This document shows, in pieces, positions 1 through 17,512 of a stretch of 64,000 nt of DNA. Source of the DNA: Nitrospirota bacterium (GTDB lineage: Bacteria; Nitrospirota; Nitrospiria; Nitrospirales; Nitrospiraceae); the NCBI GenBank assembly GCA_963703955.1, contig CAVPGK010000026.1, positions 1 through 64,000 on the forward strand, written 5' to 3'. The position numbers and the translations under genes are program-made. Position 1 is the first letter of the stretch. Every line of letters begins with the position of its first letter. The notes beneath the pieces are model-generated. The model had not been told where the DNA came from, searched no databases, and saw only the letters and a list, made by a program, of their open reading frames with translations.

Positions 1-117
1 AGGAGTCCGTGACAGCGAAATTGCAATTAAACCTCGCAACAGAGTGCTGGCATGGTCCTGGAAAATGAATCAGATATTGTTAAACAGTCAAAGACGTTAG
101 CTAACGAGGGCTGAGCG

Positions 118-549
118 ATGGGCCTTATTGAGGATGCGATCAAGCTTGTTCTCTCAGCCGTCCGGACATTCAGCGACGCAACGAGGCTGAAAGAGTTCAA
201 AAAATTGCGAGATGAAATCTTTGTGGCCCTTGAGTACTACTCTAACGTAGATACATCTATTGGAATCCTTTCTAGGGACCACAGCCCGAAGTGGCGCAAG
301 AGGCCAAGGAAACCTATCGTCAGTTTGCTGCTCGCCTTGTCGTCTATAAGAATTTACCCTTCCATACGCTGTTGGGGCTTCCCTCGGGCCGAATACTTGG
401 AGATCGCGAAAGCGAACCTTGTCCAACTCTCCAGGGAGAGCGGGAAGCCGGAGGCGGCTGTGGCGAACTACGACCGGCAAGCCAACGTCCGGGAGGCACT
501 CAAAACCACATGGGGCGCGCGAAAGATCAAAAAGAGGATTGCGCTATGA
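118..549 (+). CDS. Hypothetical island protein, probably with two compensating frameshifts around 285-385
   Basis: 143-aa ORF. The middle segment reads more naturally in the alternative frame (VAQEAKETYRQFAARLVVYKNLPFHTLLGLP). Confidence 0.5.
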   Translation: MGLIEDAIKLVLSAVRTFSDATRLKEFKKLRDEIFVALEYYSNVDTSIGILSRDHSPKWRKRPRKPIVSLLLALSSIRIYPSIRCWGFPRAEYLEIAKANLVQLSRESGKPEAAVANYDRQANVREALKTTWGARKIKKRIAL

Positions 550-750
550 ATGGACCGCGTCACACAACAGGAGGGCTGAATCATGAAAGGCTGTCTCAGA
601 CACAGGGGAAGGAGACTCGGCGATGACTGAACACAAAGCGAGAAAACCACCAGGGAGTTGAGGGTGGAATGGTGGCTTAGACTTTGACCTGCGGTTTACT
701 AGTTTGCTGCGGCCCAAAATGGCTCGACACGACAATGAGTTAGATGGGGT

Positions 751-769
751 TGCTACCATGGTGCTACCA
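751..769 (-). repeat. Two direct TGGTAGCA repeats (integrase arm-site-like)
   Basis: TGCTACCA at 751-758 and 762-769, inverted relative to the three copies at 3855-3883. Confidence 0.6.
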
Positions 770-785
770 ACATGAGACAGATCAG

Positions 786-957
786 AACCGACCGAAAAGA
801 TCGTCCACGGTAATACGACCCACGGTCTTGCCGTGATGAAAAAGGACCTAAAGACCCTCGGTGGGCGGGCGATCGACAGACGAACAACGCTAGGCAAGGC
901 GCTGGATCAGTGGCGATCCGATCTATGCTGCACAGGTGGCCTGCAGCACACTTATTA
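786..957 (+). pseudogene. Truncated remnant of a probable mobile-element gene
   Basis: Open frame (EPTEKIVHGNTTHGLAVMKKDLKTLGGRAIDRRTTLGKALDQWRSDL) with an in-frame stop just upstream and no convincing start; it runs into the attI-like motif. Confidence 0.35.
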
Positions 958-964
958 GTTAGGC
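944..964 (+). other. attI-like site, partial copy
   Basis: CAGCACACTTATTAGTTAGGC aligns without gaps to 2164-2184 and to the reconstructed empty IS110 site; it ends in GTTRRRY 10 nt before a gene start. Confidence 0.55.
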
Positions 965-974
965 GGACAGAATT

Positions 975-1584
975 GTGGCATTCAGAGTTGCCCAGGACAT
1001 CGTCACGGAATTCCACCGGCGTCATTCGACCAGCCATCGGATATGGGAGTACCAAGCTGCGACACTGCGCTACGCGGCCGAGGTCCTGTTCCGACAAGCG
1101 TTCGTTGACACGGCCGTGCAGCTTCGGCATCGTAGGCGGAAGGCACTACGCCCCTCGCTAAATGGCCCTGGTTACATGCTAGCCGGAATGATGATCGAGG
1201 CTGCGGCGAAGGCCGTGCTCGTCTCTCGGTCGACCCACGTTTTGTCAAATGACATGCGAAAGCATGATCTTCTCAAGATCGTCAAGGCGACAGGTTACGT
1301 GCCGACGCCGGTCGAGCGAGACATGTTGAGACGCCTTACGGCGTTTGTACGCTGGGCGGGCAGAATACCCTGCCCCGTTGAAACTGGACGAAATGGCTGT
1401 CGAAAGTGCTGACGGCGGCCGCAGTCTAGTTGGAGGCGGTATCCTTGGCGCCGATCTGCGGGGTGCGCGTCAGATCGTCGACAAACTGGAGGCGATGCTA
1501 CCGGGCGAACGTATACGCAAGGGAATGCGGTTGCCCTCTGGCGGCGCGAGCATCAATCCTTGGCGACGTAAGCGTCCTCGGTAG
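975..1584 (+). pseudogene. HEPN-like hypothetical protein with one frameshift near 1365 (possibly a sequence error)
   Basis: Motif pattern ML.G..IE...KA, HDL..I, WAGR/YP; removing one A joins ORFs 975-1412 and 1345-1584 into ...VRWAGRYPAPL. Confidence 0.5.
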
Positions 1585-1794
1585 ACTGTAACAAAACTCA
1601 TGCTGGATTCCATCGACAATTGGCTTCTGAGGCAACCGAACCTCATCAATGCGCGCCGTCGTGCGATGCTTCCGGTGGTCGTGTGCGGCAACAGCTCTCA
1701 GATGCCTTGAGTAAATACCTCTGCTCCCTCGGTTTGGAGCGGCGGCCGAAGCAAGGCGGAACGTTAAGGGACTTACTGGCACGACCGACATCGT

Positions 1795-1900
1795 CTCAGG
1801 ACACCCCGCCAAACGCGCCACAACGCGATGGAGCAGAAGTTTCCGTTCAGGCCGATGGGCAGGCAGAGTAAGCATGGAACTTCTTGCGCCGCAACTCTTG
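1795..1900 (+). repeat. ~105-bp dispersed direct repeat, copy 1
   Basis: First 40 bp identical to 3332-3371, then a diverged but alignable continuation. Confidence 0.9.
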
Positions 1901-2051
1901 TCCCACACAAAACCATCTCCCGCCATCACATCGCCACAACACGTTGTAGAGTGTTTGATCCAATTCCGTCCCTGTCAAAACGATCGCTCCCGATGGTTAG
2001 GTTATAGTGAGAGAGGAGAGACTTGAGTCCTTCGCAGGTATAACGGAACTA

Positions 2052-2184
2052 TGCCGGTCTGTATGGCACGCCAACCCGGCGTTGTGGATGGGGTTGACAA
2101 ATCTATGGACCAACACGAGAATTGCGCCGGAGTTGGCACGAGGTATCTGCGTACTGTGCCGGTCAGTATACTCAGTAGTTAGGC
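2052..2184 (+). promoter_or_regulatory. Pc-like promoter + attI-like module, intact copy
   Basis: TTGACA (2094-2099), 17 bp, GAGAAT (2117-2122); direct repeats TGCCGGTCWGTAT at 2052 and 2157; ends in GTTAGGC; homologous to 15814-15690 on the minus strand. Confidence 0.7.
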
Positions 2185-2200
2185 ATCAAGGAATACACCC

Positions 2201-3238
2201 GTGGAACTACCTGGCGAGAAGCTGTTGATCAAGCTTTGGGAGACCCTTGCCGAGAAAGGCGTCGGATCCTTGCTTTCGCCGTGGCAGACCATCCGTGAAG
2301 GCAAAGCACGAAACGAGGTGCGGAAGCACGAACTACTTCTGGCTGCGCAGGCTGAGGCAGATGTCGCAGAGGTGCGCGCGGGGCGGAAGCGACTTCAGCC
2401 CGACGGAACGCTTCTTCAGCTTCCTGCTCCTGGCGAGGCCCCTGCTGTCCGCTTGCTTCAACAGGATGGACGGATCGAGCCCGCTCTTGATCTCAAGTTA
2501 TTTGCGCAAGCTGCGCTAACAAGCGGGGCCACAGAAGCAGCCCGAACCGAAATAAATGCAAGTAAGGCTATTATCTACGCCGAAGACCTTCTCGCGGATG
2601 ACGCTCAAACACCGCCCGACCGCAAACTCGATGAGGATTGGCTCTTTACCTGGCGTGACCACGCCGGCAGAGTGTCAAGCGAAGATTTACAGCGGTCTTT
2701 GGGAAGGGTGCTAGCCGGCGAGGTCAAGTCGCCTGGCTGCTGTTCTATTCGCACGTTGGATTTTCTGCGATCGTTGTCACGGGAGGAAGCTGAGGAGATA
2801 TCGAAACTCGCATGCTTCGTAGTCGAGAGGCAGATTATTCGAGATCAGAACCAGTATCTAGAAGAGCGCGGTGTTACCCTCGACCTGCTTCTACGCATGC
2901 GGGAACTCGGCGTAGTTTTGGGCGTTGAGGCGATTGGGTTGGAAACGGCTTTCCGTACGCAAGTCCCTGGCAAGTTCTTGCGCGCGTTGCGCTCGCACAG
3001 TAAAGCCCTCATCGTCGAGCACGAAGACGCGACGCGCGACCTGAAGCTGAAGGTTTACCCCCTCACATCTGTTGGCGCGCAACTTCTGGGTCTTGGCAGC
3101 TTCACTCCTGATGTTGAATACCTCAAGCGGGTTGGCAAGGTTATCGCTAGCCAAGGCTATACAGTACTTCTAGCAGACTGGCGACAGATCTCCGAGCGTG
3201 AAGGCCAATACTTTAACAAAGCAAAGATTGATGCCTAA
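2201..3238 (+). CDS. DUF2806-like protein in an integron-type gene cassette
   Basis: 345 aa with DEDWL..W...A..VSSEDLQ...VLAGEVKSPG..S.RTL; bounded by GTTAGGCATCAA and its reverse complement TTGATGCCTAAC, which overlaps the stop codon. Confidence 0.8.
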   Translation: MELPGEKLLIKLWETLAEKGVGSLLSPWQTIREGKARNEVRKHELLLAAQAEADVAEVRAGRKRLQPDGTLLQLPAPGEAPAVRLLQQDGRIEPALDLKLFAQAALTSGATEAARTEINASKAIIYAEDLLADDAQTPPDRKLDEDWLFTWRDHAGRVSSEDLQRSLGRVLAGEVKSPGCCSIRTLDFLRSLSREEAEEISKLACFVVERQIIRDQNQYLEERGVTLDLLLRMRELGVVLGVEAIGLETAFRTQVPGKFLRALRSHSKALIVEHEDATRDLKLKVYPLTSVGAQLLGLGSFTPDVEYLKRVGKVIASQGYTVLLADWRQISEREGQYFNKAKIDA

Positions 3239-3331
3239 CCCTTCCTTCTAGTGACGACTGTTGGTTACCATGCACTACTTGGCAAATCAAAGGGCCTGTG
3301 TACTATGGGTTACCAACCCAACGTGCCATGC

Positions 3332-3437
3332 CTCAGGACACCCCGCCAAACGCGCCACAACGCGATGGAGCGGCACTTCACATGCAGGCCGATGGAGAGG
3401 CAGGGTAAACAAGGAACATTTCGCGCTGCAACGTGTT
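3332..3437 (+). repeat. ~105-bp dispersed direct repeat, copy 2
   Basis: Aligns to 1795-1900. Confidence 0.9.
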
Positions 3438-3607
3438 GCTACGGGGCTTCCCCTTCAGGCTCTTTTTGGCTCGTCCTGCTCTATCGGACCATCTTACGCT
3501 CCCCATAATCGGTACGCTGCTGGTTGAAGACACCGCAATTCGCAAATCTCAAGATCATTAACAGGTGAGATTTTTCAGTTAAGCCGATCTCCGCAGCAGA
3601 TCAAGCC

Positions 3608-3850
3608 ATGCGTCTTCTGAAGAAGGCGAAGCTTCCGCTCCACTTCTCGCCGCACTGTCTCCGTCATACGTATGCGTCGATTCTGTTGGCGGATGGCGTG
3701 AGTCCGGTTTACGTACAAGAGCAGTTGGGCCATGCGACGATTGAACTGACGGTCTCGACCTATGGCCGATGGTTGAAAAAGAAAGCGCCCGGCGCGCTGG
3801 ATCGACTCGACGCTGCCGAGGATTACGTAGAAGCCGAGGGGGGCCTCACC
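3608..3850 (+). pseudogene. C-terminal fragment of a phage-type tyrosine integrase
   Basis: HCLRHTYAS, LGH and catalytic Y (TVSTY) motifs; N-terminal part missing; next to the tRNA 3' end. The ORF extension through the tRNA is not credible. Confidence 0.85.
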
Positions 3851-3854
3851 CACG

Positions 3855-3883
3855 TGGTAGCAGGTGGTAGCAAAGTGGTAGCA
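3855..3883 (+). repeat. Three direct TGGTAGCA repeats (putative integrase arm sites)
   Basis: Copies start at 3855, 3865 and 3876, between the integrase remnant and the tRNA 3' end. Confidence 0.7.
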
Positions 3884-3953
3884 ACAGCGGGTTATGCACA
3901 GAATCCCCAGACCGGAACCATTCTGCAACTACCTGAAATGGCAAAGGAAAATT

Positions 3954-4030
3954 TGGTGGCCCCGACACGAATTGAACGTGCGACACGCGGTTTAGGAAAC
4001 CGCTGCTCTATCCAACTGAGCTACGGGGCC
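3954..4030 (-). tRNA. tRNA-Arg(CCT)
   Basis: Acceptor stem GGCCCCG/CGGGGCC, anticodon arm GCGGT-TTCCTAA-ACCGC, T-loop GTTCAATT, encoded CCA. Confidence 0.97.
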
Positions 4031-4083
4031 ACGAGATCTACAACATGACGCGTTAACGAGAGTCGGACACTGCTTCGAACTGC

Positions 4084-4494
4084 TCAGCGATTCGTCTCGT
4101 CTCGCTTGCAGCTTGATTCCGCCATCATGCGCTGTCCGGCGCTTGCATCGCGTGGAATCCGATTCATGCACGTCTGCAGCGTATCCCCCTCCGTTCCCGA
4201 GGCAACCTGCTGAGAGTCCGTGCGCGCGGTTCCATAATCACGGGTGCAGGTCTGTTCCGCGACCGAGCGCTGCCCGGGCGTCGCGTCTTTCGGGATCCGT
4301 GCGATGCAGGTTTGCAGCGGATTGGTCGGTGCCTGGCGACCGCCGGTCGCGGTCGCGCCTCCGCCCGTCGCAGGTGCGCTGGTTGCAGCCGTGCCTCCGC
4401 CCGTCCCAGGTCGGCTGCTCTCTTGCGAGGCGCAAGCACTGAGGAGACCGGCTGCCATCATGGAAATGATCATACCGGATCGAATCACCGTCAT
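4084..4494 (-). CDS. Lipoprotein with two Cys-containing repeats
   Basis: AAGGAGG RBS, lipobox LSAC, G/T/A-rich linker, and LQTC..RIP.DA..GQR..AE..C.RD twice. Confidence 0.8.
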   Translation of the reverse strand: MTVIRSGMIISMMAAGLLSACASQESSRPGTGGGTAATSAPATGGGATATGGRQAPTNPLQTCIARIPKDATPGQRSVAEQTCTRDYGTARTDSQQVASGTEGDTLQTCMNRIPRDASAGQRMMAESSCKRDETNR

Positions 4495-4564
4495 AATATC
4501 CTCCTTTGCGAACGAAGCGCGTGATTATACGAGGACATACGCAACAAACAACGCGGTCGAACGA

Positions 4565-5932
4565 TTACGTCCCCCCTTGTTGAGCCTGAATGAGCTCCCG
4601 TTTGGCAGGCACCTGCGTCAAAAGGTCCGATCGAGCCTGATAGATACCCGAGAGCGACTTTCCCGTCGCGTAGACTAATCCGCCCGCCTTCGTCCCGAGC
4701 ACCAGCCGGCCGCTTTGCTTGCCGTCCTTACCGGTGGCTACAAATTCGGCGGCCGGAGAGGCCAGCCCGTAAGGCGTCAATGGGGCCGCCTGTTTCACGA
4801 CGCGCAGCTCGGCGGGCAGGTCCGCCACTCGACTCACAAAAACTGCGGCTTTCTCCTGGTCCACCTTTTCGTTCGGTATGTCTTCCAGGACCCAGACCGA
4901 ATTCTGGCGGATCAGCGTGTAGGCCTCGTCGCGGGTCTTGACAGCCAGTATGGCGATGTTCTCCGCATCCAGACCGAGCAACCGCTTATCTTGTAACGCA
5001 AAGAGGTCCTTGTTCAAGTCCTTTATTATCGTAGGATTGATCCGATAGATCGGCGCTTCCGGGGTGGTCAGCGCGTACGCTTCACCGCTGGAGCGATCGG
5101 GCCTGAACAGTTTGACCGTCTGATCCGCTCCCCCCGCATATACGGTGATCTTGAGCTCAGGCTTTTTGAGGATCTGCATCAAGGCGTCTTGCTCCGGTCC
5201 CGGATCGACGAAGGACAGCGCTTTCAAATCCTCGAGCTTCATCAATAATGTCCGCACCGCCGGCTGATCGGCCGCCGCTTCAATCGGGTAGCGGATCGCC
5301 CATTTTTTCTTCGCGTCCTTCTCTTCAGTCCGGTACAGGACGATCTCGGTCGGCGGGTAGGTGAGCCGCAGCCGTTCGACCTGGCTTTGGTCAAAGCGGA
5401 GGACTTCCTTTTTCCGGAACGTGATCAGTGACTTGTTGAGAAAGTCCTTCGGCGTAAGATCGGTCAGCAGAATTTTGCGGTCGGAACCCCGCATCGCATA
5501 GAGCGTGGAGGAAATGGGCCCACTGTCACCCAGCGATAAGGTTTCCTGACCGGTGTTCGTGGTGACGGTCAACACCACGACGGGTTTCTCGAGTCCGAAT
5601 GGCGCGAGGGTAGATGCCGTTTCTTCGACGACGCGGTTGACCTTTCCGAGCGTCAGCGCGCGGATCATGGCCTCCACGGTTCGCGAATCCGCATCGGTTT
5701 CCAGCGGCTCGGTGATCCTCCACCTTCCTTCCTTCGCAGCGAGAGTCACCTTTTCTGCTTCCCCCATGATGGTCAGGCCGGTGATCTCCTGTTCTTGAAA
5801 AGGGAGAATCCTCTTTTCCTGGGCTTCCGTCTGAGTCTGCGCCCGTTCCGTGGGCAATTCGATGACGTACACGTATGCGATCAATCCTGCCAGTGCGAGA
5901 GCCATCAGAATGGTGAGCCGGTGTCTTCTCAT
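4565..5932 (-). CDS. DUF4340-domain protein
   Basis: N-terminal TM helix, repeated W.I..P...AD and FGL..P motifs; last gene of the Gld-type ABC operon. Confidence 0.8.
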   Translation of the reverse strand: MRRHRLTILMALALAGLIAYVYVIELPTERAQTQTEAQEKRILPFQEQEITGLTIMGEAEKVTLAAKEGRWRITEPLETDADSRTVEAMIRALTLGKVNRVVEETASTLAPFGLEKPVVVLTVTTNTGQETLSLGDSGPISSTLYAMRGSDRKILLTDLTPKDFLNKSLITFRKKEVLRFDQSQVERLRLTYPPTEIVLYRTEEKDAKKKWAIRYPIEAAADQPAVRTLLMKLEDLKALSFVDPGPEQDALMQILKKPELKITVYAGGADQTVKLFRPDRSSGEAYALTTPEAPIYRINPTIIKDLNKDLFALQDKRLLGLDAENIAILAVKTRDEAYTLIRQNSVWVLEDIPNEKVDQEKAAVFVSRVADLPAELRVVKQAAPLTPYGLASPAAEFVATGKDGKQSGRLVLGTKAGGLVYATGKSLSGIYQARSDLLTQVPAKRELIQAQQGGT

Positions 5933-6034
5933 ACCGTCACATGCCGGCGCGAGGTAGGGGCTGGGCCAGTGGTTGATGTAGCAACGGGAAGAAAGTTCTT
6001 CAAGCCTCTTGCCTCTCACCTCGCCCTTCCGTGG

Positions 6035-7558
6035 CTATAGGCGGCGGCGGCGGCGCCATATGGCCATACCCCAGAGGAACGTCAGGGATGGAAGCAACAG
6101 CACTTGAACATAGAGAAGGATGCGTTCCTGGGACGGATTCGGGATGAATGGCCGGAAGGCCGGTTCCTTGGGGGTAATCGAGATCAGGTCTCGCTCTTCG
6201 GCCAGCCATCCCAGGGCATGCAGTAAGAAGTCCGTGTTACCGGGAAAATTGACATAGGCGTTGCTCGCAAATGAAGAATTGCCGACCACAACGATGGCGG
6301 CACGAGGCTTTCCCTCTTCAACCGGTTTTTTGGGGGTGAGCGCGGCAGCCAGCGGCAGCGGTCCTTGCACGTCGTCTTTGGCGCTGTAGCTGACGACACG
6401 GCCTTTGAGGTCGGTCTCAGCCCAGCTTCTGGGCGATGTGCGGGCCAGCGGAACGAAATCCCATTCCTTGCCGGCTTCATCATGAAAGACTAGATGCCGG
6501 GAGACCGGAAAGAGCACTGCAAAGGTAAAATCCTGGGTGATCTCGTGTTCCGTGAAAGTCCGCACCATCAACGCAGTCAAATCGCCTTGTGCGAGTCGGT
6601 CCTGCAGATCCACCAGAACACCCTTGCCCGCTTCGAGACCCCATCGGCGCAGCAACGGGTCGAGCTCGGACTGCGTGTCGGGATCGATCAGCAGCAACAC
6701 GTGTCCTCCGGCTTCGACGAAGCGACCGATGCGGTCCTGTTCTTCCTTCGTGACCGGACGGCGAGGACCGGCCAGTACGAGAACAGCCGTGTTCTCCGGC
6801 ACCTGACTTTCCTGCAGCAAGGAGACGGGTTCGACCTCGTAGCCCTGTTTCGTCAAGGCTTCTTTCATCAGCGAGAGCCCCCCGCGCTCCTGATCGGTCA
6901 GGCTTCGCTCGCCGTGTCCATCGAGAAACCGGATGTGCTTCTTCCTGTCCTTTGACACGCGGATCAGCGCGCTGGTCAGTTCAGCCTCCGAGGGTACGGT
7001 GACACGGGTGGTCTGCGAGCCACTTTCCAGCACAGCGGTATCAGTCCGCGTAATCCCGTACTGACGGGCGACGCCGGGCCGTCGTTCAGGGTCCACAAAC
7101 TCGACCTTGAACTTGTCGCTGGCCTGGCGGTAGCTGTCGAGCAGGTCGTGGTACAGATTGAACGACTGGCTCCGATCTTGAGAGAAGACGGTCACCTTGA
7201 CCTCTTGCGTAAGACCCCGGAGGACTTGGTAGGTCTGCGGGGCCAAGGTGAAGTGTTGTGTTTCGGAGAGGTCCCATCGCTTGGAATGGCGGGCCGCCAA
7301 AAAGTTGAGGATCACGAGAATGCCGGTAAAGAGGACGACCATCAAGATACTGTTCATCCCTAACCGAGTCGAGCGCCGGGTCGAGAAGGCCTTGACCGTT
7401 TCAAAGTGAATCACGAAGAAGGCGACGAGACAAACCAGCGCCAGCCCTTCCAGAAGGGTCACCAACCATAGCTTGTCCGGTGCGATGCTATAGGCGACCA
7501 GGCCACCAAGTGCCAATCCCGCACCGATCGCACCGATCGCAGGCGTCACCCGACTCAT
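6035..7558 (-). CDS. GldG-family ABC transporter auxiliary protein
   Basis: RWDLS....TL, DP..P..A..YG, F..GHGE and GNTDF motifs; C-terminal TM followed by WRRRR. Confidence 0.85.
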   Translation of the reverse strand: MSRVTPAIGAIGAGLALGGLVAYSIAPDKLWLVTLLEGLALVCLVAFFVIHFETVKAFSTRRSTRLGMNSILMVVLFTGILVILNFLAARHSKRWDLSETQHFTLAPQTYQVLRGLTQEVKVTVFSQDRSQSFNLYHDLLDSYRQASDKFKVEFVDPERRPGVARQYGITRTDTAVLESGSQTTRVTVPSEAELTSALIRVSKDRKKHIRFLDGHGERSLTDQERGGLSLMKEALTKQGYEVEPVSLLQESQVPENTAVLVLAGPRRPVTKEEQDRIGRFVEAGGHVLLLIDPDTQSELDPLLRRWGLEAGKGVLVDLQDRLAQGDLTALMVRTFTEHEITQDFTFAVLFPVSRHLVFHDEAGKEWDFVPLARTSPRSWAETDLKGRVVSYSAKDDVQGPLPLAAALTPKKPVEEGKPRAAIVVVGNSSFASNAYVNFPGNTDFLLHALGWLAEERDLISITPKEPAFRPFIPNPSQERILLYVQVLLLPSLTFLWGMAIWRRRRRL

Positions 7559-7607
7559 AGTTGCAAACTCACCTTTCTCCAAGGGAGGGCCCTGGCCCTC
7601 CCTCCTC

Positions 7608-8378
7608 CTATTTCCACCGCTGTGACTCCACCACCCGATGGGCAAGAAACAACATCAGAATAATCCCGCTGACGTAGTAGATAAGATCTTTGCTGTCCAC
7701 AAGTCCGCGAACCAACCGGTCGTGATGCTCCAAGAACGAGAGATAGGAAATACTGTTGCCAAGCGACGTATCTCCGACGATCCCTCCCAGCGCCCCCATC
7801 AGCCAAACGAGGATCAGCAGACCGAAACTCAGAAACGCCGCCACAATCTGATTCTCCGTCGTGGCCGACGCGAAAACTCCCGTCGCAAGGAATAAGCCGC
7901 CCAGCAAGGTCAATCCCAGATATCCGGTGAAGACAGGGTTCCAATCGAAACTGCTGAATAATGAGAGAACGATCGGTGCGATGCTCGTAAGCATCAGCAA
8001 ACCGAGGAAGATCAGGTACGCTCCAAGAAATTTCCCAACCACCACTTCGTTCATCCCCACCGGGGAGGTCATGAGTAACTCGAAAGTTTTTAGTTTGCGC
8101 TCTTCCGCGAAGAGACGCATGGTCAAGATAGGAAGAACAAACAGCAGCACCAGCGCCATGCTGTAAAACAGTTGCCGGAACACGAGGTCATTCAGATTCA
8201 ACTGGGCAGCGGCCCCCTGAACCTGCATATAACGAACGGCAACCGTTCCGGCATTGACGACCGCTGAATAGGCCAGGAACCCAAAAATCAACAGAAAGAT
8301 TGAGCCCACCACGTATACAACCGGCGAAACGAAATAGGAGCGGAGTTCCTTGGCGACAATCGCGTTGACGGGCGTCAT
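7608..8378 (-). CDS. ABC-2 permease (GldF-like)
   Basis: KELRSYFVSP, TMRLFAEERK..T.ELL.TSP, multiple TM helices. Confidence 0.9.
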   Translation of the reverse strand: MTPVNAIVAKELRSYFVSPVVYVVGSIFLLIFGFLAYSAVVNAGTVAVRYMQVQGAAAQLNLNDLVFRQLFYSMALVLLFVLPILTMRLFAEERKLKTFELLMTSPVGMNEVVVGKFLGAYLIFLGLLMLTSIAPIVLSLFSSFDWNPVFTGYLGLTLLGGLFLATGVFASATTENQIVAAFLSFGLLILVWLMGALGGIVGDTSLGNSISYLSFLEHHDRLVRGLVDSKDLIYYVSGIILMLFLAHRVVESQRWK

Positions 8379-9346
8379 GGCTGGTGAATCTCCTGCGCGA
8401 TAGCGCTTGCTTCCGGCATGCCTTCCTCGTGTTGCGTCAGACGGAGGAAGACGTCCTCCAGGGTCATGGAAATAGTCTTCAATTCAAGCAGCCCCCAGCC
8501 TTGACCCACCACGAACCGCGCGATGTCGTCTCGAAGGTCACGGCCCAATTCACATTCCAGGAGAAAAGCCCCGCTCTCCGACTGATCAAAGACGCTCACG
8601 ATCCCGGGCAGGGAACGGAATCGATCGGCCGCGTCTGGCGGAGGCGCTTTCAGGATCACGCTGACTTTTTCGGAACGACGGAGTCTGGCGGAGAGCCGGT
8701 CGGGTGTATCGACTGCGATGATCCGACCATGATTAATGATGACCACACGCTGGCAGACCGCCGTCGCTTCAGGGAGGATATGGGTGCTGAGAATAACCGT
8801 ATGCGAGCCGGCCAGGCTCTTGATAAGCTCACGGATCTCGATAATCTGTTTGGGATCGAGCCCCACCGTCGGTTCGTCCAGGATCAGAACCGGCGGATCG
8901 TGGAGCAAGGCTTGAGCCAGTCCCACACGCTGTCTGTATCCTCGCGAGAGGTTGGCAATGAGACGGTGCCGTACATCGCCCAGCGACAGACGCTCCACGA
9001 CACGGTCAAGTCCAACGCGCAGGTCCTCCGAACTCATGCCTTTGATCCGGCCCACGAAGGTCAAGTATTCGGACACAGTCAGTTCGTGATAGACAGGTGG
9101 GGTCTCCGGCAAATATCCGATCCGTCGCTTGACTTCGCCGGGCTGCTCAAAACAATCGAACCCGGCGACGCGGGCGGTACCCTCGGTCGCGGGAAGAAAA
9201 CAAGTGAGGATGCGCATGGTTGTGGTCTTGCCTGCGCCGTTCGGTCCTAGAAAAGCCAAGACCTCACCCTTGGCCACGCTGAATGTCACTCGTTCGATGG
9301 CGGTGTAGTCGCCAAACCGTTTGGTGGCACCTTGAACTTCGATCAT
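8375..9346 (-). CDS. ABC transporter ATP-binding protein (GldA-like)
   Basis: Walker A GPNGAGKT, signature LSRGYRQR, Walker B LILDEP. Confidence 0.93.
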   Translation of the reverse strand: MIEVQGATKRFGDYTAIERVTFSVAKGEVLAFLGPNGAGKTTTMRILTCFLPATEGTARVAGFDCFEQPGEVKRRIGYLPETPPVYHELTVSEYLTFVGRIKGMSSEDLRVGLDRVVERLSLGDVRHRLIANLSRGYRQRVGLAQALLHDPPVLILDEPTVGLDPKQIIEIRELIKSLAGSHTVILSTHILPEATAVCQRVVIINHGRIIAVDTPDRLSARLRRSEKVSVILKAPPPDAADRFRSLPGIVSVFDQSESGAFLLECELGRDLRDDIARFVVGQGWGLLELKTISMTLEDVFLRLTQHEEGMPEASAIAQEIHQP

Positions 9347-9508
9347 CGAGAGTCCATCCGTCTCACAATCAAAAGGGGTGGTCGGAGTGTCCCCGCTTGT
9401 GCGCCCAGTGCACAGCCTGTCGTGCGTGATGCGCGAGCGGGGAGGGTTGCCCAACCGCCCCTCTCCACAACCCGCGGCCTCCACGTCTGGGGAGCGGGTT
9501 CGCGCAGG

Positions 9509-9537
9509 ATATTAACCAGTCAACCTTACTCAGTCAA
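9509..9537 (-). promoter_or_regulatory. Candidate sigma70 promoter of the ABC operon
   Basis: TTGACT-17 bp-TAATAT on the minus strand. Confidence 0.4.
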
Positions 9538-9695
9538 GACTTTGTGCGGTGCAGACAGGACGAGAAGAAGTTTCCCACGCCATGCAAATCTGTTATAGTA
9601 GCTCCCCGTTAGTCGGGAGCACCGCCGGAATGGAATCTCACCCGGGCACCAACACACGTCTCTCTGGATATCCAGACTTCTCAGCGGAACGGTTG

Positions 9696-10370
9696 ATGGT
9701 ATCAACCGCCCCTCATCACTGGATCGGCCGAATCGTTCTCCTGTGTCTACTTGTCTGCGCCCCGGCGTTGGTCGCCGGGTGCGCCGGTCAAAAAGCGGCC
9801 ACCTCGGTTCAGGATCAAACCGTCGTCTCGGGTCGCCAGAAACCGACACGCCCGGATGCTACCGCGAGGACCACCGAGCGTGCGATCGCCGCGCCCGAAG
9901 CGATTCCGCCGCCGGCGTTTCCTGTGCCGGCGCCACGCTCCCGCGAGCCTGAAGCGGCTACGGCGTCACCGCTTGTCGCGGGCAAGGAAGAAGCGGAAAC
10001 CGTTGTGACTCCAGCGGTCGTCGAGGTCCCGTCGATCGAACTGGCCGACATCTTTTTCGATTTCGATCGATTTACTATTCGCAGCGATGCGGAACCCATC
10101 CTTGAAGCCAACGCCCAGCTTCTTTCGGTTCATGTCGATGGCAAGGTGGTGATCGAAGGACACTGTGATGAGCGAGGATCGGCCGACTATAACCTCGTAT
10201 TGGGCGAACGGCGCGCGCAGGCCGCCAAACGGTACCTGCAGGAGCAGGGAGTCGAGGGCTCGCGCATGCAAGTCGTGACCTACGGAAAGGAAAGACCCGT
10301 GTGCATCCAGCATAAAGACGATTGTTGGCAGAAAAACCGGCGGGCCCATTTCGTGTTCACGCGGGAGTAA
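9696..10370 (+). CDS. pal: OmpA/Pal-family peptidoglycan-associated lipoprotein (start uncertain)
   Basis: Lipobox VAGC; IFFDFD, IEGHCDERGS..YN..LGERRA, YGKERP and NRRAHF. Confidence 0.85.
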   Translation: MVSTAPHHWIGRIVLLCLLVCAPALVAGCAGQKAATSVQDQTVVSGRQKPTRPDATARTTERAIAAPEAIPPPAFPVPAPRSREPEAATASPLVAGKEEAETVVTPAVVEVPSIELADIFFDFDRFTIRSDAEPILEANAQLLSVHVDGKVVIEGHCDERGSADYNLVLGERRAQAAKRYLQEQGVEGSRMQVVTYGKERPVCIQHKDDCWQKNRRAHFVFTRE

Positions 10371-10457
10371 CGAGACCCTGGGGTGGTCATTGCGGCTCCA
10401 GCACTGCATGGCTCATCCATCGACATCTCATAGTCACTCTTACAAGAGGAGGTCTTC

Positions 10458-11081
10458 GTGGTAGGACGTATGCTGCGCTTCATATGGTGCGTGGGATTCT
10501 TGGCGCTGCCTGCTTGCGCCAATAAGGGAGATGTGGTCTATGTGAATGTGCACGCGGTTCCGCCGGCCAGCGAAGCAGCGGTCAAGAAAAGTGACGTCAA
10601 CGTCGTTGTGTTGCCGTTCGAAGATGCGCGACCCGAACAGGGCCGGGTCGGAACGCGCGAGCATTTTTGGGGCGGGCGTTCGTATTTCGAGGTCCCAGGC
10701 GTGAAGCCTTCCGAGGCCGTGGCCGAGGCCGTGGCCGACTATTTGAAGGCCAAGGGCTGGAAGGCTCGTGTGGCAAAATCCAACGATGCGACCGGACCGG
10801 CCGACGTGGTCCTGTCGGGTAAGGTCCTAGGTCTCGCCGTAGACGCCGAAAGCAAGTTCGGCAGGACGAACATATCGGCGAAGAGCAAGCTTGCAGTCGA
10901 AGGTCTGAATACCTCGGACGAAAGCAAGGTCCGAATGACCCTGAACGGGTCCGGCTCAGACAGTGTATTCTGGTACGACCCGAAGGATGCGCAAAAACTT
11001 ATGAATGAAGTGTTGACCGAAAGTTTCGAAAAGTTGGTGGTCGACACCAAATTTGAGGATCAGAGCCTCCGGCTGAAGTGA
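10458..11081 (+). CDS. Putative lipoprotein (YajG-like)
   Basis: GAGGAGG RBS, lipobox LPAC, V.PFEDARP motif. Confidence 0.65.
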   Translation: MVGRMLRFIWCVGFLALPACANKGDVVYVNVHAVPPASEAAVKKSDVNVVVLPFEDARPEQGRVGTREHFWGGRSYFEVPGVKPSEAVAEAVADYLKAKGWKARVAKSNDATGPADVVLSGKVLGLAVDAESKFGRTNISAKSKLAVEGLNTSDESKVRMTLNGSGSDSVFWYDPKDAQKLMNEVLTESFEKLVVDTKFEDQSLRLK

Positions 11082-11406
11082 AGAGGGAGGAGGGGTAGTC
11101 GGCTGCCCTGAAGACACGGCCGACTCAGCGGCCAGCAGCTTTGTCTGGGCTCGGAGTTCTGAGGTGGCCGATTTCATTCAGCAACTCCTCGGGCGCCCAT
11201 GGTATCTGACAGACGTCACGGAAGAGTTGTCAACTTTCTCGTGTGTACCATTCCGCCTACTCCGCATGACATGGTCAGCGACCGCTTGGATACCCTGGGG
11301 GATTTGGTTGTAATCGCCGGGATCCAAGATAACGTGCCGCAGTTGAGAAGACTATATCTTCTGTTTTTTGGGCGCTGAGCAACCCACACATGCAGGAGCG
11401 GAGAAA

Positions 11407-13014
11407 ATGCCAAGTTTGAAAAACCCGGCCATCGCCGGCGAAGTGCAATTCGATACCTTCATCTACGGCGCACCGCCTCTAGCCTACCCAGCATCGCTGT
11501 CCCAATTTGTGATCTACAACACGCCGGATCCGGCGTACGTCACGGGCCGAATCAATGTCTCGGCGTTCGCCAACCTCGGAGCTGCCACCCCGTGGCCTTT
11601 TCTCAACACGAACGTACCCCTCAATGGGCATGTTTGCGTGCCCCGCGGGAGAGGCCCCTTCCCGTTGGCGATGTTTGCGCACGGCAATCACAACCCTTTC
11701 GAGAATTCCACACCCGGATACTTGTATTTGTGCCAGTTATTGGCGTCGCACGGGATCATCGCCGCAACGATTGACGTGAACTTCCTCAACGGAGCCAACT
11801 TCGGAGAGAACGACGGCAGAGCGATCGTTCACCTCGAACACCTCAAACAGTTTCGGACCTGGAATAACGCCGCGACTCACCCGCTGCACGGCAAAGTCGA
11901 TCTGAATCGCATTCTCATCGTGGGCCATTCGCGCGGTGGGGAAGCCGTAGGACACGCGTCATTCTTTAATCGGCTCGCCTCCGTCGGAGGCGTCCTTCTT
12001 GATGGATCCGCCGGGCTCGGTCCCTATCGTTTCGGGTTGTCCGCCGTGGCCGCCATCGCTCCAACCGACCGGCAATTTACGCCGGTCACCGGGCCAACCG
12101 TTGTCCCGGATTCGTACTATGTGATTCACGGCAGCAAGGATTCGGACGTCTTCACGTTCGAGGGCTACCATACCTACGAGCGCGCCCATGCCGTGGACTT
12201 GGCCAACCCCACGGTTTCCGACGGGAAGCTCAAGGCGATGTTGTGGGTGCACAAGGCGAATCACAATCAATTCAACAGCATTTGGGCATCGGAGACGCCT
12301 CCTGGAGTCGCTATGCCTCGCGCCAGCCAGGAGGAGATCGCAAAGGTCCATCTTGGAGCATTGGCGCAGGCGGTGCTCTTAGACCGGGCAGAGTATATGG
12401 ACATATTGCGTGATCACGGCGCCGCAGTCGCGTGGGACCCGGCCGACACGGAGTTCGTGTCGCAGTATCAAGATCCCGCGCGATTCTTCGTCCAGCACAA
12501 TCAGGAAGGCCTCGCTCCGCCGGTCGTCTCGCTTCCGGTTCAGGGCTCCGTTGCGGCGGACGGCGTCGTCGCCGCGCGCCAATTGACGGCGCTGGTCGGC
12601 GGCGCTCCCACGACAACGATCACACTCCGACTTGCTTGGAACGCTCTCGGTTCTCGCCTGCTCCTGCGAGTGGATTCCTCGACGCTTCCCGCGGAACGGT
12701 ACAAGACGCTAGCACTCCGCGTGGGGCAGTCCACGGAGCCAAGCAACCCGGCCAACCGCGATCAGGATTTCACACTTGAGGTTTCGAGCGGTTCGCGCAC
12801 CGTTGCGATTCCGGCGAGTTCCCTCCACCGGCTGCTGTATCCCGATCCACCGCCTTTCGGCCCCGCGAAGATCATGATGCAGACGCTTCGCCTGCCTGTA
12901 GAGCGGTTGGTCGACTGTGGCGTCGACCCAACCGACCTTCGCTCCATTGCTCTTGTGTTCGACCGGCGAGCGACCGGCACGGTCTATGTCGGCGATTTGC
13001 AATTTTCCGACTGA
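11407..13014 (+). CDS. Alpha/beta hydrolase with a C-terminal beta-rich domain
   Basis: HGNH, GY.YL...LASHG, nucleophile elbow GHSRGG, HGSKDSDV and ANHNQFN. Confidence 0.8.
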   Translation: MPSLKNPAIAGEVQFDTFIYGAPPLAYPASLSQFVIYNTPDPAYVTGRINVSAFANLGAATPWPFLNTNVPLNGHVCVPRGRGPFPLAMFAHGNHNPFENSTPGYLYLCQLLASHGIIAATIDVNFLNGANFGENDGRAIVHLEHLKQFRTWNNAATHPLHGKVDLNRILIVGHSRGGEAVGHASFFNRLASVGGVLLDGSAGLGPYRFGLSAVAAIAPTDRQFTPVTGPTVVPDSYYVIHGSKDSDVFTFEGYHTYERAHAVDLANPTVSDGKLKAMLWVHKANHNQFNSIWASETPPGVAMPRASQEEIAKVHLGALAQAVLLDRAEYMDILRDHGAAVAWDPADTEFVSQYQDPARFFVQHNQEGLAPPVVSLPVQGSVAADGVVAARQLTALVGGAPTTTITLRLAWNALGSRLLLRVDSSTLPAERYKTLALRVGQSTEPSNPANRDQDFTLEVSSGSRTVAIPASSLHRLLYPDPPPFGPAKIMMQTLRLPVERLVDCGVDPTDLRSIALVFDRRATGTVYVGDLQFSD

Positions 13015-13037
13015 TTCGGATCTATTGAGGTGTCGTC

Positions 13038-13493
13038 ATGCAGCCACCGAAACCACCGAAAATCACGACCGTAGAGGTCATACCCGCACAGCCCACCGAA
13101 GCGGAAAGCGCGGCGATCGCGCGTCTGAGCTCCGAATCGAAGACGTCGCTGCCTCAGGTTGCCTATGTCGTCAAGGTCCGGCTCAAGACCAAGCCGCCGG
13201 TCACTTCGATGGCTTGGGGGCTCTACGTGAATGATGTACTCATCCCTAAATATTGGGAATATGAAGAGGGGATTTACTTTACAGTGATCGCCGCACAGTT
13301 TTTCGCCGACCACAAAGGCAAGCGGTTGCGCTTCTCGCAGAACGGAGTCGACTTCCACGACACGGGGATGAAGCTGCCGGCGCCAACGATGCCTGGGGCG
13401 CTATCACAATCCAAGGGCAAGCCGCCCCAATTGCCCTTGCAAGCCGACGTACTGAAGCAAGAACCTGCCCCGGTCAAGCGGCGAGTCCGATAA
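13038..13493 (+). CDS. Hypothetical protein
   Basis: 151-aa ORF with a GAGG RBS, 23 nt downstream of the hydrolase. Confidence 0.65.
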   Translation: MQPPKPPKITTVEVIPAQPTEAESAAIARLSSESKTSLPQVAYVVKVRLKTKPPVTSMAWGLYVNDVLIPKYWEYEEGIYFTVIAAQFFADHKGKRLRFSQNGVDFHDTGMKLPAPTMPGALSQSKGKPPQLPLQADVLKQEPAPVKRRVR

Positions 13494-13505
13494 ACACTCA
13501 AGTAG

Positions 13506-13880
13506 TCAGTCCGTTCCCCAGGGGTTGTCGATCACGAAGCGCCAGGAGCCGTCTACCTGACGACGCAGAACATCCGCGGATTTTGCCGCCAGCTTCACTG
13601 GGTCGCCGTCTGGCCCGGTTCCAGTGAATGACCAAACCGTAGTTACGAGGGCCAGATCACTTGCCTCAAGGACCCTTGTTACTTTGAGATCGAGTGTGCC
13701 CTTCATCGCAATGAAATCGGCCAGCGCTTCACGGACACCGGGTAACCCGTGAGTGAGGCTCCCAGGCTGAGTCGCAAAAGCGGCCTCAGGCTCATAAAAA
13801 GGCATGAGAGTGTCGAGATTGCCCGTGTTAATTCCGTCAACTATCGATTTGAGGACTTGCTCAGGCGTTCCTCTGGACAT
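13506..13880 (-). CDS. SnoaL/NTF2-like (DUF4440) protein, cassette-borne; own attC not found
   Basis: ADVLRRQ.DGSWR.VIDNPWG motif; GGAGG RBS; starts after GTTAGAC. Confidence 0.85.
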   Translation of the reverse strand: MSRGTPEQVLKSIVDGINTGNLDTLMPFYEPEAAFATQPGSLTHGLPGVREALADFIAMKGTLDLKVTRVLEASDLALVTTVWSFTGTGPDGDPVKLAAKSADVLRRQVDGSWRFVIDNPWGTD

Positions 13881-13926
13881 AATATCCTCCCTCCCGATTC
13901 TGTTTCGTTTTGATCGTCGCTCAGAG

Positions 13927-13998
13927 GTCTAACGTTTGACATAACCGGCACGCAAAAAGCGTAGCTTTTTGGGTGTCCGGTTGATGGAAGGGTTATGC
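13927..13998 (-). other. Integron attC site (72 bp)
   Basis: Minus strand GCATAAC-CCTTCCATCAACCGGACACCCAAAAAGCTACGCTTTTTGCGTGCCGGTTATGTCAAAC-GTTAGAC, an imperfect palindrome bounded by RYYYAAC-like and GTTRRRY boxes. Confidence 0.9.
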
Positions 13999-14062
13999 GT
14001 CTGCAGGCACTCAAGGCGTTGACCTGTTTCTGCAAACTTCCTACGGGCGGCAACGCTTCGAC

Positions 14063-14479
14063 TTACGCCTGGCGAAGATTTGCATCGGGAACACGCCGCG
14101 ATAGCCACAGAAGATACGAGCCGATAACAGCATCAACCACAAAACAGAAAATGGGATACCAAACGGGAACGCCAGTGTTTGTGATGAGCTGACTATGCAC
14201 CAAGTCGTACAGCCCGTGCAGTAGCCAAAATACACCGACCACTACTGCTGACTGGCGGACGCTAACAAACGCGAAGACAAGGCCGGCGACGACGAACGGA
14301 ACACCGTAGATCATTTCCTTGACGCCCACAGCCTGCTCGCCTGCTTGTAGAGCGAAGAACGCGTAGATGCCAGGCAGAATGAGCAGGCCCAACGAATACA
14401 ACCAACGTTCCCCACGAATGAATCGCGCAGACACAATGGTAAGAACACCAACCGCCGCACCAATGAGGGCCTCAATCAC
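14063..14479 (-). CDS. Membrane protein (DUF6010-like), cassette-borne
   Basis: Multiple TM helices, W.LHG.YDL.H and P.WYP.FC..VD; the cassette start GTTATGC is the reverse complement of the attC R'' box GCATAAC. Confidence 0.75.
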   Translation of the reverse strand: MIEALIGAAVGVLTIVSARFIRGERWLYSLGLLILPGIYAFFALQAGEQAVGVKEMIYGVPFVVAGLVFAFVSVRQSAVVVGVFWLLHGLYDLVHSQLITNTGVPVWYPIFCFVVDAVIGSYLLWLSRRVPDANLRQA

Positions 14480-14519
14480 AATTCTCTCCTCTCTTAAGAG
14501 GCATAACTTGTATCTTTAC

Positions 14520-15672
<1,153 letters not shown>

Positions 15673-15689
15673 AACTGAACACAGTTGCT

Positions 15690-15814
15690 ATTGAGTATGC
15701 TGATCCGGCATAGTACACACCAACAGCTTGCAAACTAGCGCATCATTCTTTAGTTCTTTCAATCACTTGTCAACCTCCCCGTGGGGCTGGGTCGGCGTGC
15801 TATACAGACCGGCA
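15690..15814 (-). promoter_or_regulatory. Pc-like promoter + attI-like module, copy interrupted by IS110
   Basis: Minus strand TGCCGGTCTGTATAGCAC...TTGACA (15773-15768), 17 bp, AAGAAT...GTACTATGCCGGATCAGCATACTCAAT; homologous to 2052-2184. Confidence 0.7.
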
Positions 15815-15830
15815 CGACGAGACCCAGACT

Positions 15831-16088
15831 TCAGCGATATGCGTCTTTTCTGTGGCCTATCCGAAGGACAAGAACAGCGAACGGCGCTTTCTGAATCTCA
15901 TAGACGATCCGGAATCGTCCCACGCGCCAGCGGTAAAGCCCCTTAAATTCGCCGGTTAAGGCCTTGCCCTGATACGGATCTGCCGCTAAGTCTTTCTCCA
16001 TGGCTTCCAAAAGCCGTCTTTGGTCAACCTTCGGGAAGGTCTGGAAATCTTTGAGGACAGATTTCTTGAAGCGCAACTCAAAGGCCAA
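15831..16088 (-). CDS. relE: RelE/ParE-family toxin
   Basis: DPYQGKALTGEFKGLYRWRVGRFRIVYEI...IGHRKDAY. Confidence 0.9.
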   Translation of the reverse strand: MAFELRFKKSVLKDFQTFPKVDQRRLLEAMEKDLAADPYQGKALTGEFKGLYRWRVGRFRIVYEIQKAPFAVLVLRIGHRKDAYR

Positions 16089-16293
16089 GCGCTTTCCTCA
16101 CTTGCGCAAGGTTAAGGATCTCATCGTCCTTATCGGCGCGGCGCTCCAGGGCAATCTGATAGTCTTCATACTCCTGAAGATAAAGCTCTAGCGCCTTCTT
16201 GATGAAGTAGCTTTTCGGGCGTTCGCTCTCCTTTGCGAGTCTTTGCAGCCTTCGATCCGTCTGGTCGTCAAGCCTCAGCGTCAAGACCGCCAT
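16078..16293 (-). CDS. Ribbon-helix-helix (RelB-like) antitoxin
   Basis: LTLRLDD....RL..LA....RPKSYFIKKALE; overlaps the toxin start. Confidence 0.85.
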   Translation of the reverse strand: MAVLTLRLDDQTDRRLQRLAKESERPKSYFIKKALELYLQEYEDYQIALERRADKDDEILNLAQVRKALGL

Positions 16294-16318
16294 CAGCCAC
16301 CTCCTTTCGAGATGCTTC

Positions 16319-16350
16319 TGTATTGTATGCAATACAAGAGCATACATCAA
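16319..16350 (-). promoter_or_regulatory. Promoter and operator of the RelBE-like operon
   Basis: TTGATG-17 bp-TACAAT overlapped by the inverted repeat TGTATTG-N4-CAATACA. Confidence 0.7.
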
Positions 16351-16393
16351 GGCTACCTTGCCCGATTCTTGGAGGAACTGAACGCCAACAGCA

Positions 16394-16633
16394 TTACTGC
16401 GCAAGCAGACGCTGCAGTCCCTGGAGCGCGATGTCGATCCAGTCCGGCCGGTGATGCAGTTCGTAGCGGAGTTCGTAGAGGGCTTTCTCGAGTTGAAAGA
16501 GCACGAGTAATCGGTCGACGGATGCAGGTGAGGCCGGAAGGAACGCCACCTCGCCTGGCTTGGCCGCTACATGGTAGCCGTTGAGAAAGGCGCGAGCCGC
16601 TTGTCCTTCCCAGACCTCCAGGAGGAGCTGATC
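16394..16633 (-). pseudogene. Duplicated 3' end of the maltokinase gene
   Basis: 16401-16633 aligns without gaps to 18627-18859 (offset 2226) and encodes [23 protein letters not shown]. Confidence 0.9.
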
Positions 16634-16657
16634 ACATTGGCCCACCGGGGAACTCTG

Positions 16658-16686
16658 TTGACTGTTGCATCCCATGCAAGTATCAT
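16658..16686 (+). promoter_or_regulatory. Promoter and operator of the Phd-PIN operon
   Basis: TTGACT-17 bp-TATCAT with TTGCAT-N3-ATGCAA in the spacer. Confidence 0.7.
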
Positions 16687-16708
16687 GGTTGCTAGGGAGG
16701 AGAGAGCC

Positions 16709-17002
16709 ATGCGAGAGAAGGTGTCCACGATCGACGTGCGGCAGCGGATCGGCGACCTGCTCAACCGCGTCGCGCTCCGGCATGACGAATTCATCATCGA
16801 ACGCAAAGGAAAGCCCCTGGCGGCGCTCGTGCCGGTCGAGCGCCTGGAGCAGATGCGCCGGTTCGCCAGTCGTCATGGGCTTGATGTCCTGGCCCAGCAA
16901 AAGGGTGGAGACTTGACCGACGAGCAGGCCATGGAGCTGGCTCTGGAGGCGCAGGCCTGGACTCGGAAGCACGCCCGCAAGCCTCGTCGCCGGACCTCGT
17001 AA
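16709..17002 (+). CDS. Phd/YefM-family antitoxin
   Basis: R..IGDLLNRV.....FIIERKGKPLAALVPVE; GGAGG RBS. Confidence 0.88.
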   Translation: MREKVSTIDVRQRIGDLLNRVALRHDEFIIERKGKPLAALVPVERLEQMRRFASRHGLDVLAQQKGGDLTDEQAMELALEAQAWTRKHARKPRRRTS

Positions 17003-17005
17003 CCA

Positions 17006-17449
17006 GTGCTGCGGGCCGTCCTCGACGCAAATATTTACATCAGCGCCCTCCTCCGACCGCAAGGTCCACCCGGCCAGATTGTGGAACGCTTCCTGCGAGA
17101 GGGCGCCTTCCAGTTGATCCTTTCCCTCGCCATTGCCGAGGAAGTCCTTCGGGCATTCGCCTATCCGAAGATCCGCAAACTGGTTCGCGGACCGGTGCAA
17201 GCTGAGCTGTGGTTCGAGGATCTCCTCGTGCTCGCTGAAATGGTCGAGGCCAGGTCGGAGGTGGCGGTGGTGGGTGCGGACCCAGACGATGACAAGTATC
17301 TGGCCGCAGCCATTGATGGTCGCGCCACCTATGTCGTGACCGGTGATCGCCAGTTCTTATCGCTGAGAGAGTACGAGCAGGTGCGGATCGTGACCCCTCG
17401 AGTCTTTCTCGAAGTCCTTCGAGCCGAGGCGGCTAACGGTCGCAAGTGA
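17006..17449 (+). CDS. PIN-domain (VapC-like) toxin
   Basis: AVLDANIYISALL, DPDDDKYL and VTGD motifs. Confidence 0.9.
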   Translation: MLRAVLDANIYISALLRPQGPPGQIVERFLREGAFQLILSLAIAEEVLRAFAYPKIRKLVRGPVQAELWFEDLLVLAEMVEARSEVAVVGADPDDDKYLAAAIDGRATYVVTGDRQFLSLREYEQVRIVTPRVFLEVLRAEAANGRK

Positions 17450-17512
17450 TCTGAGTGGTTGAATAGACCCCGCTTGGCCGGGCCACCTCATCCCGACCCC
17501 TCCATCGCCAGC

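Follow-up and report, generated by a model that had tools for sequence, protein, structure and literature searches.

Integrase-less Pc-attI regions dispersed in Nitrospiraceae genomes are relics of co-oriented integrons and are probably still used on occasion

Introduction

Several described systems resemble parts of the arrangement reported here. In co-oriented integrons, for example in Treponema, intI points toward attI, the attI core lies ~140-215 nt after the intI stop codon, and the cassettes run in the same direction (Wu et al. 2013, PMC3607928; Cury et al. 2016, PMC4889954). Cassettes without an adjoining integrase, grouped as CALINs where two or more attC sites occur together, are proposed to derive from integrons by degradation (Cury et al. 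2016, PMC4889954; Neron et al. 2022, PMC9024848), and no recognizable intI pseudogene was found near 95% of them (Cury et al. 2016, PMC4889954). Single cassettes dispersed over the chromosome and expressed from a nearby promoter (SALIN/attG insertion) have been explained by insertion at GWT outside att sites (Loot et al., 10.1101/2022.09.11.507474). Xanthomonas integrons with inactivated intI show repeated loss of that gene from one ancestral locus, leaving the platform and mostly frozen cassette arrays (10.1101/2025.06.18.660453). Delta-attI-type cassettes of class 1 and 2 integrons carry extra, shortened attI copies of variable length that are still recombined by IntI1. It is an open question whether cassettes lacking an integrase are what remains of integrons or were inserted at chance sites (Cury et al. 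2016, PMC4889954; Loot et al. preprint, 10.1101/2022.09.11.507474), largely because attI is known in few classes only and has not been searched for. According to one survey, attI is poorly described outside class 1 and the phylum studied here contributes only 2 CALINs (Neron et al. 2022, PMC9024848).

Here we analyze a stretch of 64,000 nt (the window) from a Nitrospiraceae genome (GenBank assembly GCA_963703955.1, contig CAVPGK010000026.1; hereafter G000). A first-pass annotation had proposed that two promoter-bearing modules in it are solo Pc-attI landing pads that express captured cassettes, with relics of integrons that lost intI as its fallback. In contrast to Treponema-type integrons, nearly all copies have lost intI, and a single genome contains many dispersed platforms belonging to several subtypes rather than one locus. 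CALINs are defined by attC, whereas the orphans described here retain Pc together with attI and in many cases lack an intact attC; their intI tails are mostly too short for a profile search of the kind used to look for CALIN pseudogenes (Cury et al. 2016, PMC4889954). SALINs have no att platform, whereas here we find true attI sites with a promoter-like element and an intI remnant, and in contrast to the single Xanthomonas locus the platforms are many and dispersed, with a first cassette that changes after the lesion. Delta-attI-type cassettes differ in that they sit in the arrays of integrase-bearing mobile integrons, where they replace attC (PMC12901181). The literature consulted already covers CALIN, SALIN, and In0 as well as inverted integrons, the decay of intI, and shortened copies of attI; new here are a third attI, at 916-964, and an IS110 element that splits the second module and whose predicted bridge-RNA guides correspond to the attI core. 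Our literature search returned no description of dispersed multi-copy Pc-attI orphans, although supplements and most subscription papers, which lay outside its scope, might hold cases; within the same scope it returned no description of an attI-aimed IS110.

Results and discussion

Structure of the modules in the window

Sequence comparison recovered both modules where the first-pass annotation had placed them, at 2046-2184 (+) and 15814-15688 (−), with 71% identity over 130 nt (E 1e-7 against the genome). Each module contains a 17-nt box on either side of a sigma-70-like TTGACA-17-RAGAAT element, followed by an ATAGTT core. The first conserved block of the module is a direct repeat of the last, ~105 nt away, a feature absent from that annotation. 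Module 1, on the plus strand, comprises box A (2049-2064), a −35 box (2094-2099), a −10 box (2117-2122), box B (2152-2168), and the core GTTAGGC (2178-2184), and is homologous to the region after intact intI in three relatives (L071, L098, L024). Module 2, on the minus strand, belongs to the same subtype (A) but is truncated inside box A, has no intI tail, and ends at the AG of the core; its −35 and −10 boxes lie at 15773-15768 and 15750-15745. The promoter blocks claimed earlier are present as TTGACA-17-GAGAAT at 2094-2122 and TTGACA-17-AAGAAT at 15773-15745, the sole promoter-like matches in the two regions scanned, and the predicted Pc matches the consensus at 10/12 positions. Among 86 orphan modules the −35 box is the best conserved block (6% mismatch). 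A putative IHF-like site overlaps the −35 box.

The module strands fold with z-scores of −1.95, −1.79, 0.65, and 1.31, compared with −6.04 for the genuine attC at 13927-13998. These values bear out the claim that the module lacks a long attC-type palindrome and do not support an attC-like hairpin inside it. Apart from tRNA, no RNA families were detected in window positions 1-18000.

Three further claims of the first-pass annotation hold in part. Both copies were said to lead directly into a gene, but copy 2 no longer does so because a complete IS110 (14509-15687) has inserted in its core. Both genes were said to have cassette ends; this is true of copy 2, which is followed by a complete cassette, whereas copy 1 keeps only the left attC end (GCCTAAC, 3233-3239), after which the site is cut. 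Finally, neither copy has a whole intI gene upstream, as stated, but positions 2023-2043 (+) before copy 1 retain the last 21 bases of a lost intI, its final six codons and stop (LSPSQV-stop), as seen in translation and in alignment with the 3' end of the intact gene in relative G023 (90% at the DNA level). This tail has the same left junction as that of another platform in the source genome, G000:C23:5206.

A third orphan attI, overlooked earlier and different from modules 1 and 2, lies at 916-964 (+). Only its right 49 nt remain, with the core GTTAGGC at 958-964, and it belongs to subtype B, the kind that follows an intact intI in L191 (86% over 43 nt, E 1e-6). It is joined to part of an island ORF, and no attC left end was found for the unannotated ORF that comes after it (975-1412, 145 aa).

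Origin as the attI end of co-oriented integrons

On sequence homology, we identify the module as the Pc-attI region of a co-oriented ("inverted") integron because it directly follows intact intI in relatives. In G023 the intact intI ends in GLSPSQL-stop and the module starts two bases on, on the same strand, although it is split by an IS; the arrangement of intI followed by module is uninterrupted in L071 and L098. Within the IntI subclade ending in GLSPxQL, this very module comes next. More broadly, we compared 31 non-redundant intact intI loci, from which 13 duplicate, partial, or frameshifted rows had been removed beforehand. An attI-like core occurs 120-300 nt past the intI stop on the same strand at 25 of these loci and on the other strand at none; shuffles lead one to expect 2.7. 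The co-oriented intI of these relatives and the intI tail before module 1 both point to an inverted-integrase platform. A crossover at GTTRRRY is indicated by homology to the attI of intact integrons, by similarity between modules that stops at GTT, and by R'' sequences that match the core. The attI identity proposed by the first-pass annotation therefore stands, as does its fallback on origin, given the intI tails and ragged left ends; what does not stand is the notion of purpose-built landing pads.

The box pair is not peculiar to the orphans. At several intact loci (L021, L022, L023, L071, L191, and others) a near-palindromic box of 16-18 nt is present in two copies, one following the intI stop and the other preceding the core, in several subtypes. 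The IS in the intact G023 integron (L032, 9130-10392), different from the one in module 2, lies between box A and the −35 box.

The observed geometry suggests how such orphans could form. Since co-orientation puts the promoter, attI, and cassettes downstream of intI, these parts would survive any deletion that removes intI, and the deletion can leave an expression unit behind. Such a unit would likely be retained because its predicted promoter would express the first cassette. Platforms would have been gained separately and intI lost separately; the right arm of the first attC is also lost in many orphans, which would fix the gene in place. Later swaps would draw on an IntI present at that time at another locus or on incoming DNA. 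We consider it probable that the modules are Pc-attI ends of co-oriented integrons whose intI was truncated or deleted, kept likely for expression and likely re-used now and then by an outside IntI. Confidence is high that they are integron platform relics; that they are still used on occasion is, judging from sequence comparisons, probable with moderate confidence.

Orphan platforms in the source genome

G000 carries 13 core-bearing orphan attI platforms of three subtypes, versus only 4 attC sites. A profile built from 36 modules gave 10 matches, 8 of them reaching the core and 2 partial, and an nhmmer profile run on the reversed genome as a control gave one match at E 0.007. Using attI regions of other intact integrons as queries added 4 subtype-B orphans, including that at 916-964, and one weak match of the third subtype with its own intI tail. 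The attC count comes from a home-made heuristic that returned 1 site in the reversed control, and an earlier, stricter version gave one site. No IntI over the TIGR02249 cutoff was detected in G000, which is 82% complete in 28 contigs, and its IntI may therefore be unassembled.

These platforms fall between established categories. No IntI gene adjoins attI in G000, where the modules carry tails of 134, 124, 40, 37, 23, 23, 13, and 0 nt, so neither a complete integron nor an In0 (intI present, no cassette) is represented. A gene cassette with a full attC (13927-13998) is present behind module 2, while module 1 keeps R'' only. The single attC in the window and the four scattered over the genome do not form the clusters of two or more that define a CALIN, and an attI precedes the cassettes, in contrast to a SALIN, whose one attC has neither a further att site nor an integrase in its vicinity. 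Units with attI but no intact attC thus make up a class outside In0, CALIN, and SALIN that would probably escape standard integron scans, and they offer natural substrates on which service in trans could be tested.

The number of copies, up to 12 in one genome, raises the alternative that the Pc-attI unit is a purpose-built mobile pad that copies itself as a defined element, via IntI at secondary sites or a REP/HUH transposase. A tandem duplicate of recent origin in G065, with a GACCCC-type repeat flanking it, and a 155-nt non-intI flank with a sharp end common to 6 genomes, would fit such an element. However, left ends vary continuously, and their raggedness argues that the modules are not pads with fixed ends. 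Comparison of 7 G000 copies gave identities of 53-88%, and most of them had nearer counterparts in other genomes than among themselves, which led us to reject recent copying within G000; ragged ends and this range of identity also differ from the fixed ends and near-identical copies of MITEs or mobile promoters. Left junctions show no excess of GWT or GTT (13/62 versus a background of 0.18), and IntI-made junctions were rejected with windows of 1, 3, and 5 nt (GTT 11/62 versus 0.11 at the widest). For REP/HUH mobilization, a first post hoc pattern occurred at 15/100 near positions versus 1-3 far ones; with a symmetric set and one locus per related group, REP-type motifs, still picked post hoc, lay near 11/78 junctions (p 0.06) and were absent from both window modules, and this candidate was rejected as well. 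Altogether we regard self-copying pads as highly improbable and return to truncated integrons. The foreign-nearest copies, together with IS3, IS481, or phage-integrase fragments and tRNA genes adjoining some G000 platforms, suggest repeated gain of platforms in this genome.

Distribution and intI loss across Nitrospiraceae

The module profile matches 77/120 Nitrospiraceae genomes of at least 95% completeness, with 1-12 copies each. In a separate draw it matched 0/101 genomes from other families of the phylum and 5/19 from Nitrospiraceae. A family-specific attI profile thus finds remnants to be common, and the intI tails that they leave are so short that protein searches would miss them. A DNA query combining tail and module matches 187/371 Nitrospiraceae genomes (about two places scored per genome), and IntI scores over the cutoff in 36/371 (five candidates scored per genome), so the lineage does have the integrase that the first-pass annotation called upon. 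A pattern scan of GTDB genomes returned 11 loci, 8 of them in Nitrospira, Nitrospiraceae, or Nitrospirales. The remaining three (L042, L050, L051) are on contigs of 2.4-3.4 kb binned to three other phyla, through either transfer or mis-binning.

Our locus sample comprised 30 returned loci and 80 further ones from the top of a list of 150 of the 272 matches to the tail-plus-module query, with loci from other searches, for 128 distinct modules; being made up of best-scoring matches, it is biased toward long tails and intact boxes. Among 114 modules with at least 1300 nt upstream, a near-full intI adjoins only 3, and a fourth (L032) is part of the G023 integron that an IS has split. The others keep 0-560 nt of intI with scattered breakpoints, and the lengths of old tails are underestimated because the tails have decayed.

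The incompleteness of G000 noted above would be compatible with an assembly artefact, in which the integrase lies on DNA that was not assembled or not binned and the modules belong to ordinary integrons. Yet the modules lie inside contigs with unrelated genes upstream, and five closed genomes are in the same state, with 2-4 modules each and no IntI over the cutoff. Incomplete assembly is therefore not the general cause of IntI absence, and we give an artefact next to no credence compared with loss of intI.

At two loci (L122, G296:C59; L152, G316:C234) a few kb hold three to five modules, whose flanks are repeated. The 155-nt flank starts at an 8-bp inverted repeat and occurs upstream of the module in six contexts (L101, L107, L120, L127, L129, L049); it is possibly the end of another mobile element.

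Cassettes and their exchange

The first cassette gene behind module 1 (2201..3238, +) encodes a DUF2806 protein of 345 aa. Overlapping its end is the left end (R'') of the cassette's attC (3233..3246, +), an exact reverse complement of the core, with the remainder of the site missing. Behind module 2 lies a complete cassette (13927..14506, −) with a TTATGCC start, a DUF6010 gene (14479-14063), and an attC (13998-13927) whose R'', GCATAAC, matches the core GTTATGC. It is followed by a second cassette start (GTTAGAC) and a SnoaL-like gene (13880-13506) within 13506..13933 (−), for which no attC left end was found.

This signature recurs beyond the window. The reverse complement of a module's own 7-nt core occurs at the stop of the first gene in 19/79 orphans, against a permutation mean of 2.8 (maximum 9 in 2000) and 1 in a mid-gene control. 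By a rule that misjudges some cases, 9 of the 19 have a complete attC, as copy 2 does, and 10 have one that is cut, as in copy 1, or degenerate. Sites resembling attC were detected downstream of 24/105 orphans versus 4/105 on the other strand. The R'' signature is absent in 60/79 orphans, and no attC is detectable in 81/105. Since most orphans lack the signature, many first genes are old, rearranged, or not cassettes; some downstream genes, such as those for a tyrosinase and a methyltransferase, may not be cassettes.

Homologous orphan modules carry different cassettes, as the landing-pad proposal had anticipated. Orphans with one common intI break carry unrelated first cassettes that start exactly at the GTT core: from GTT on, the sequences in three shared-break groups are 6/6 different, of 3 types among 5, and 3/3 different. 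A tandem pair in G065 is ~98% identical over ~430 nt and diverges at the core. The G220/G263 and G336/G158 pairs each share a break and differ in cassette. No IntI over the cutoff was detected in any of these five genomes. From these comparisons, cassette swaps at orphans are likely to represent attI x attC recombination by IntI in trans. Among orphan pairs at least 86% identical, 4/49 share downstream sequence, but most of the pairs differ in break and say nothing about timing. Tail differences in the shared-break groups are spread evenly over codon positions (51:59:62) compared with 6:10:35 in an intact pair, a pattern that comes mostly from one group and reads 9:8:21 once that largest group is excluded.

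Alternatively, the relics may be frozen, with the orphan attI never used by IntI again and cassette differences arising from homologous recombination between modules, via box A or box B, during horizontal transfer. Mosaic modules with a crossover near box A fit this account. Window copy 1 and C23:5206 have 183 nt of flank, tail, and box A in common while their interiors differ, that of C23:5206 being 90% like a G021 module. Such mosaics imply that modules undergo homologous recombination with one another, a process that could likewise exchange cassettes via box B. The att boxes moreover decay at the rate of the dead tail: in the shared-break groups, box A, box B, L, and GTT differ at 0.20, 0.19, 0.21, and 0.26 versus 0.14 for the tail, and there is thus no sign of selection to stay recombinogenic. 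IntI is also absent from most host genomes, and arrays were usually identical among Xanthomonas strains that had one intI lesion in common (10.1101/2025.06.18.660453). On the other side, the modules of G065, G220/G263, and G336/G158 are co-inherited whole, with similarity ending within a few bases of GTT, and each G065 cassette has a complete attC with an R'' that matches its own core. We therefore find permanently frozen relics unlikely and favor occasional re-use by IntI. Outside one group with a decayed promoter, the −35 and −10 boxes differ at 0/48 and 2/48 sites, in pairs that are not independent.

An IS110 element in an attI core

The element in the core of module 2 (14509..15687, +) has the PF01548 and PF02371 domains, and its ends were set by two further genome copies. 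It has the makings of an IS110 bridge-RNA element, with a DEDD recombinase gene (14689-15672, +), a 2-nt core repeated on either side (14507-14508 and 15688-15689), and predicted target and donor guides in its 5' non-coding end (14572..14677, +). The target guides ACTAACT (14572) and TCAATAG (14595) match the two halves of the attI core, and donor-matching stretches occur at 14638 and 14673. The described IS110 elements likewise have a two-base core and 5' non-coding guides that match target and donor (Durrant et al. 2024, PMC11208160). In relatives L230 and L231, other letters stand at the guide positions and match those elements' own insertion sites; this change of guide with target is as the bridge-RNA model predicts (PMC11208160). 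A fragment with the same guides as the window element occurs in G008 (L229).

Three copies of this IS110 are present in G000, at 14509-15687 of the window, C10:187183-188381, and C6:157967-159155. One is the copy in module 2, another (99.8% identical) lies in a subtype-B attI, and the remaining one occupies a site that has the same TCAATAG-TTA sequence but is not an attI, so that 2/3 copies lie in orphan attI sites of two different subtypes. IS1111 elements reportedly target attC, a finding credited to Post and Hall in 2009, whereas the guides here match the attI core. The element thus offers what is predicted to be a natural IS110 guide aimed at attI. A more speculative extension, which we think possible but rather doubtful, is a distributed integron, in which Nitrospiraceae keep genome-wide integrase-less Pc-attI pads that outnumber attC, would be refilled by passing or distant IntI, so that cassettes would go on being captured and expressed in the absence of a resident integrase, and are common enough that an IS110 bridge RNA is programmed to their core.

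Surroundings of the modules

Window positions 1-4030 form a decayed island at the 3' end of a tRNA-Arg gene (3954-4030, −), beside which lies a C-terminal phage-integrase fragment that is not an IntI (3608..4048, +). Within this region module 1 and its cassette lie between two copies of a 101-nt repeat (at 1795 and 3332), and related repeats lie beside C23:5206. Just upstream of module 2, positions 15831-18859 hold a toxin-antitoxin cluster (ParE/RHH, Phd/PIN), part of which lies between two 233-nt copies (16401 and 18627; 89%) of the 3' end of a maltokinase-like gene.
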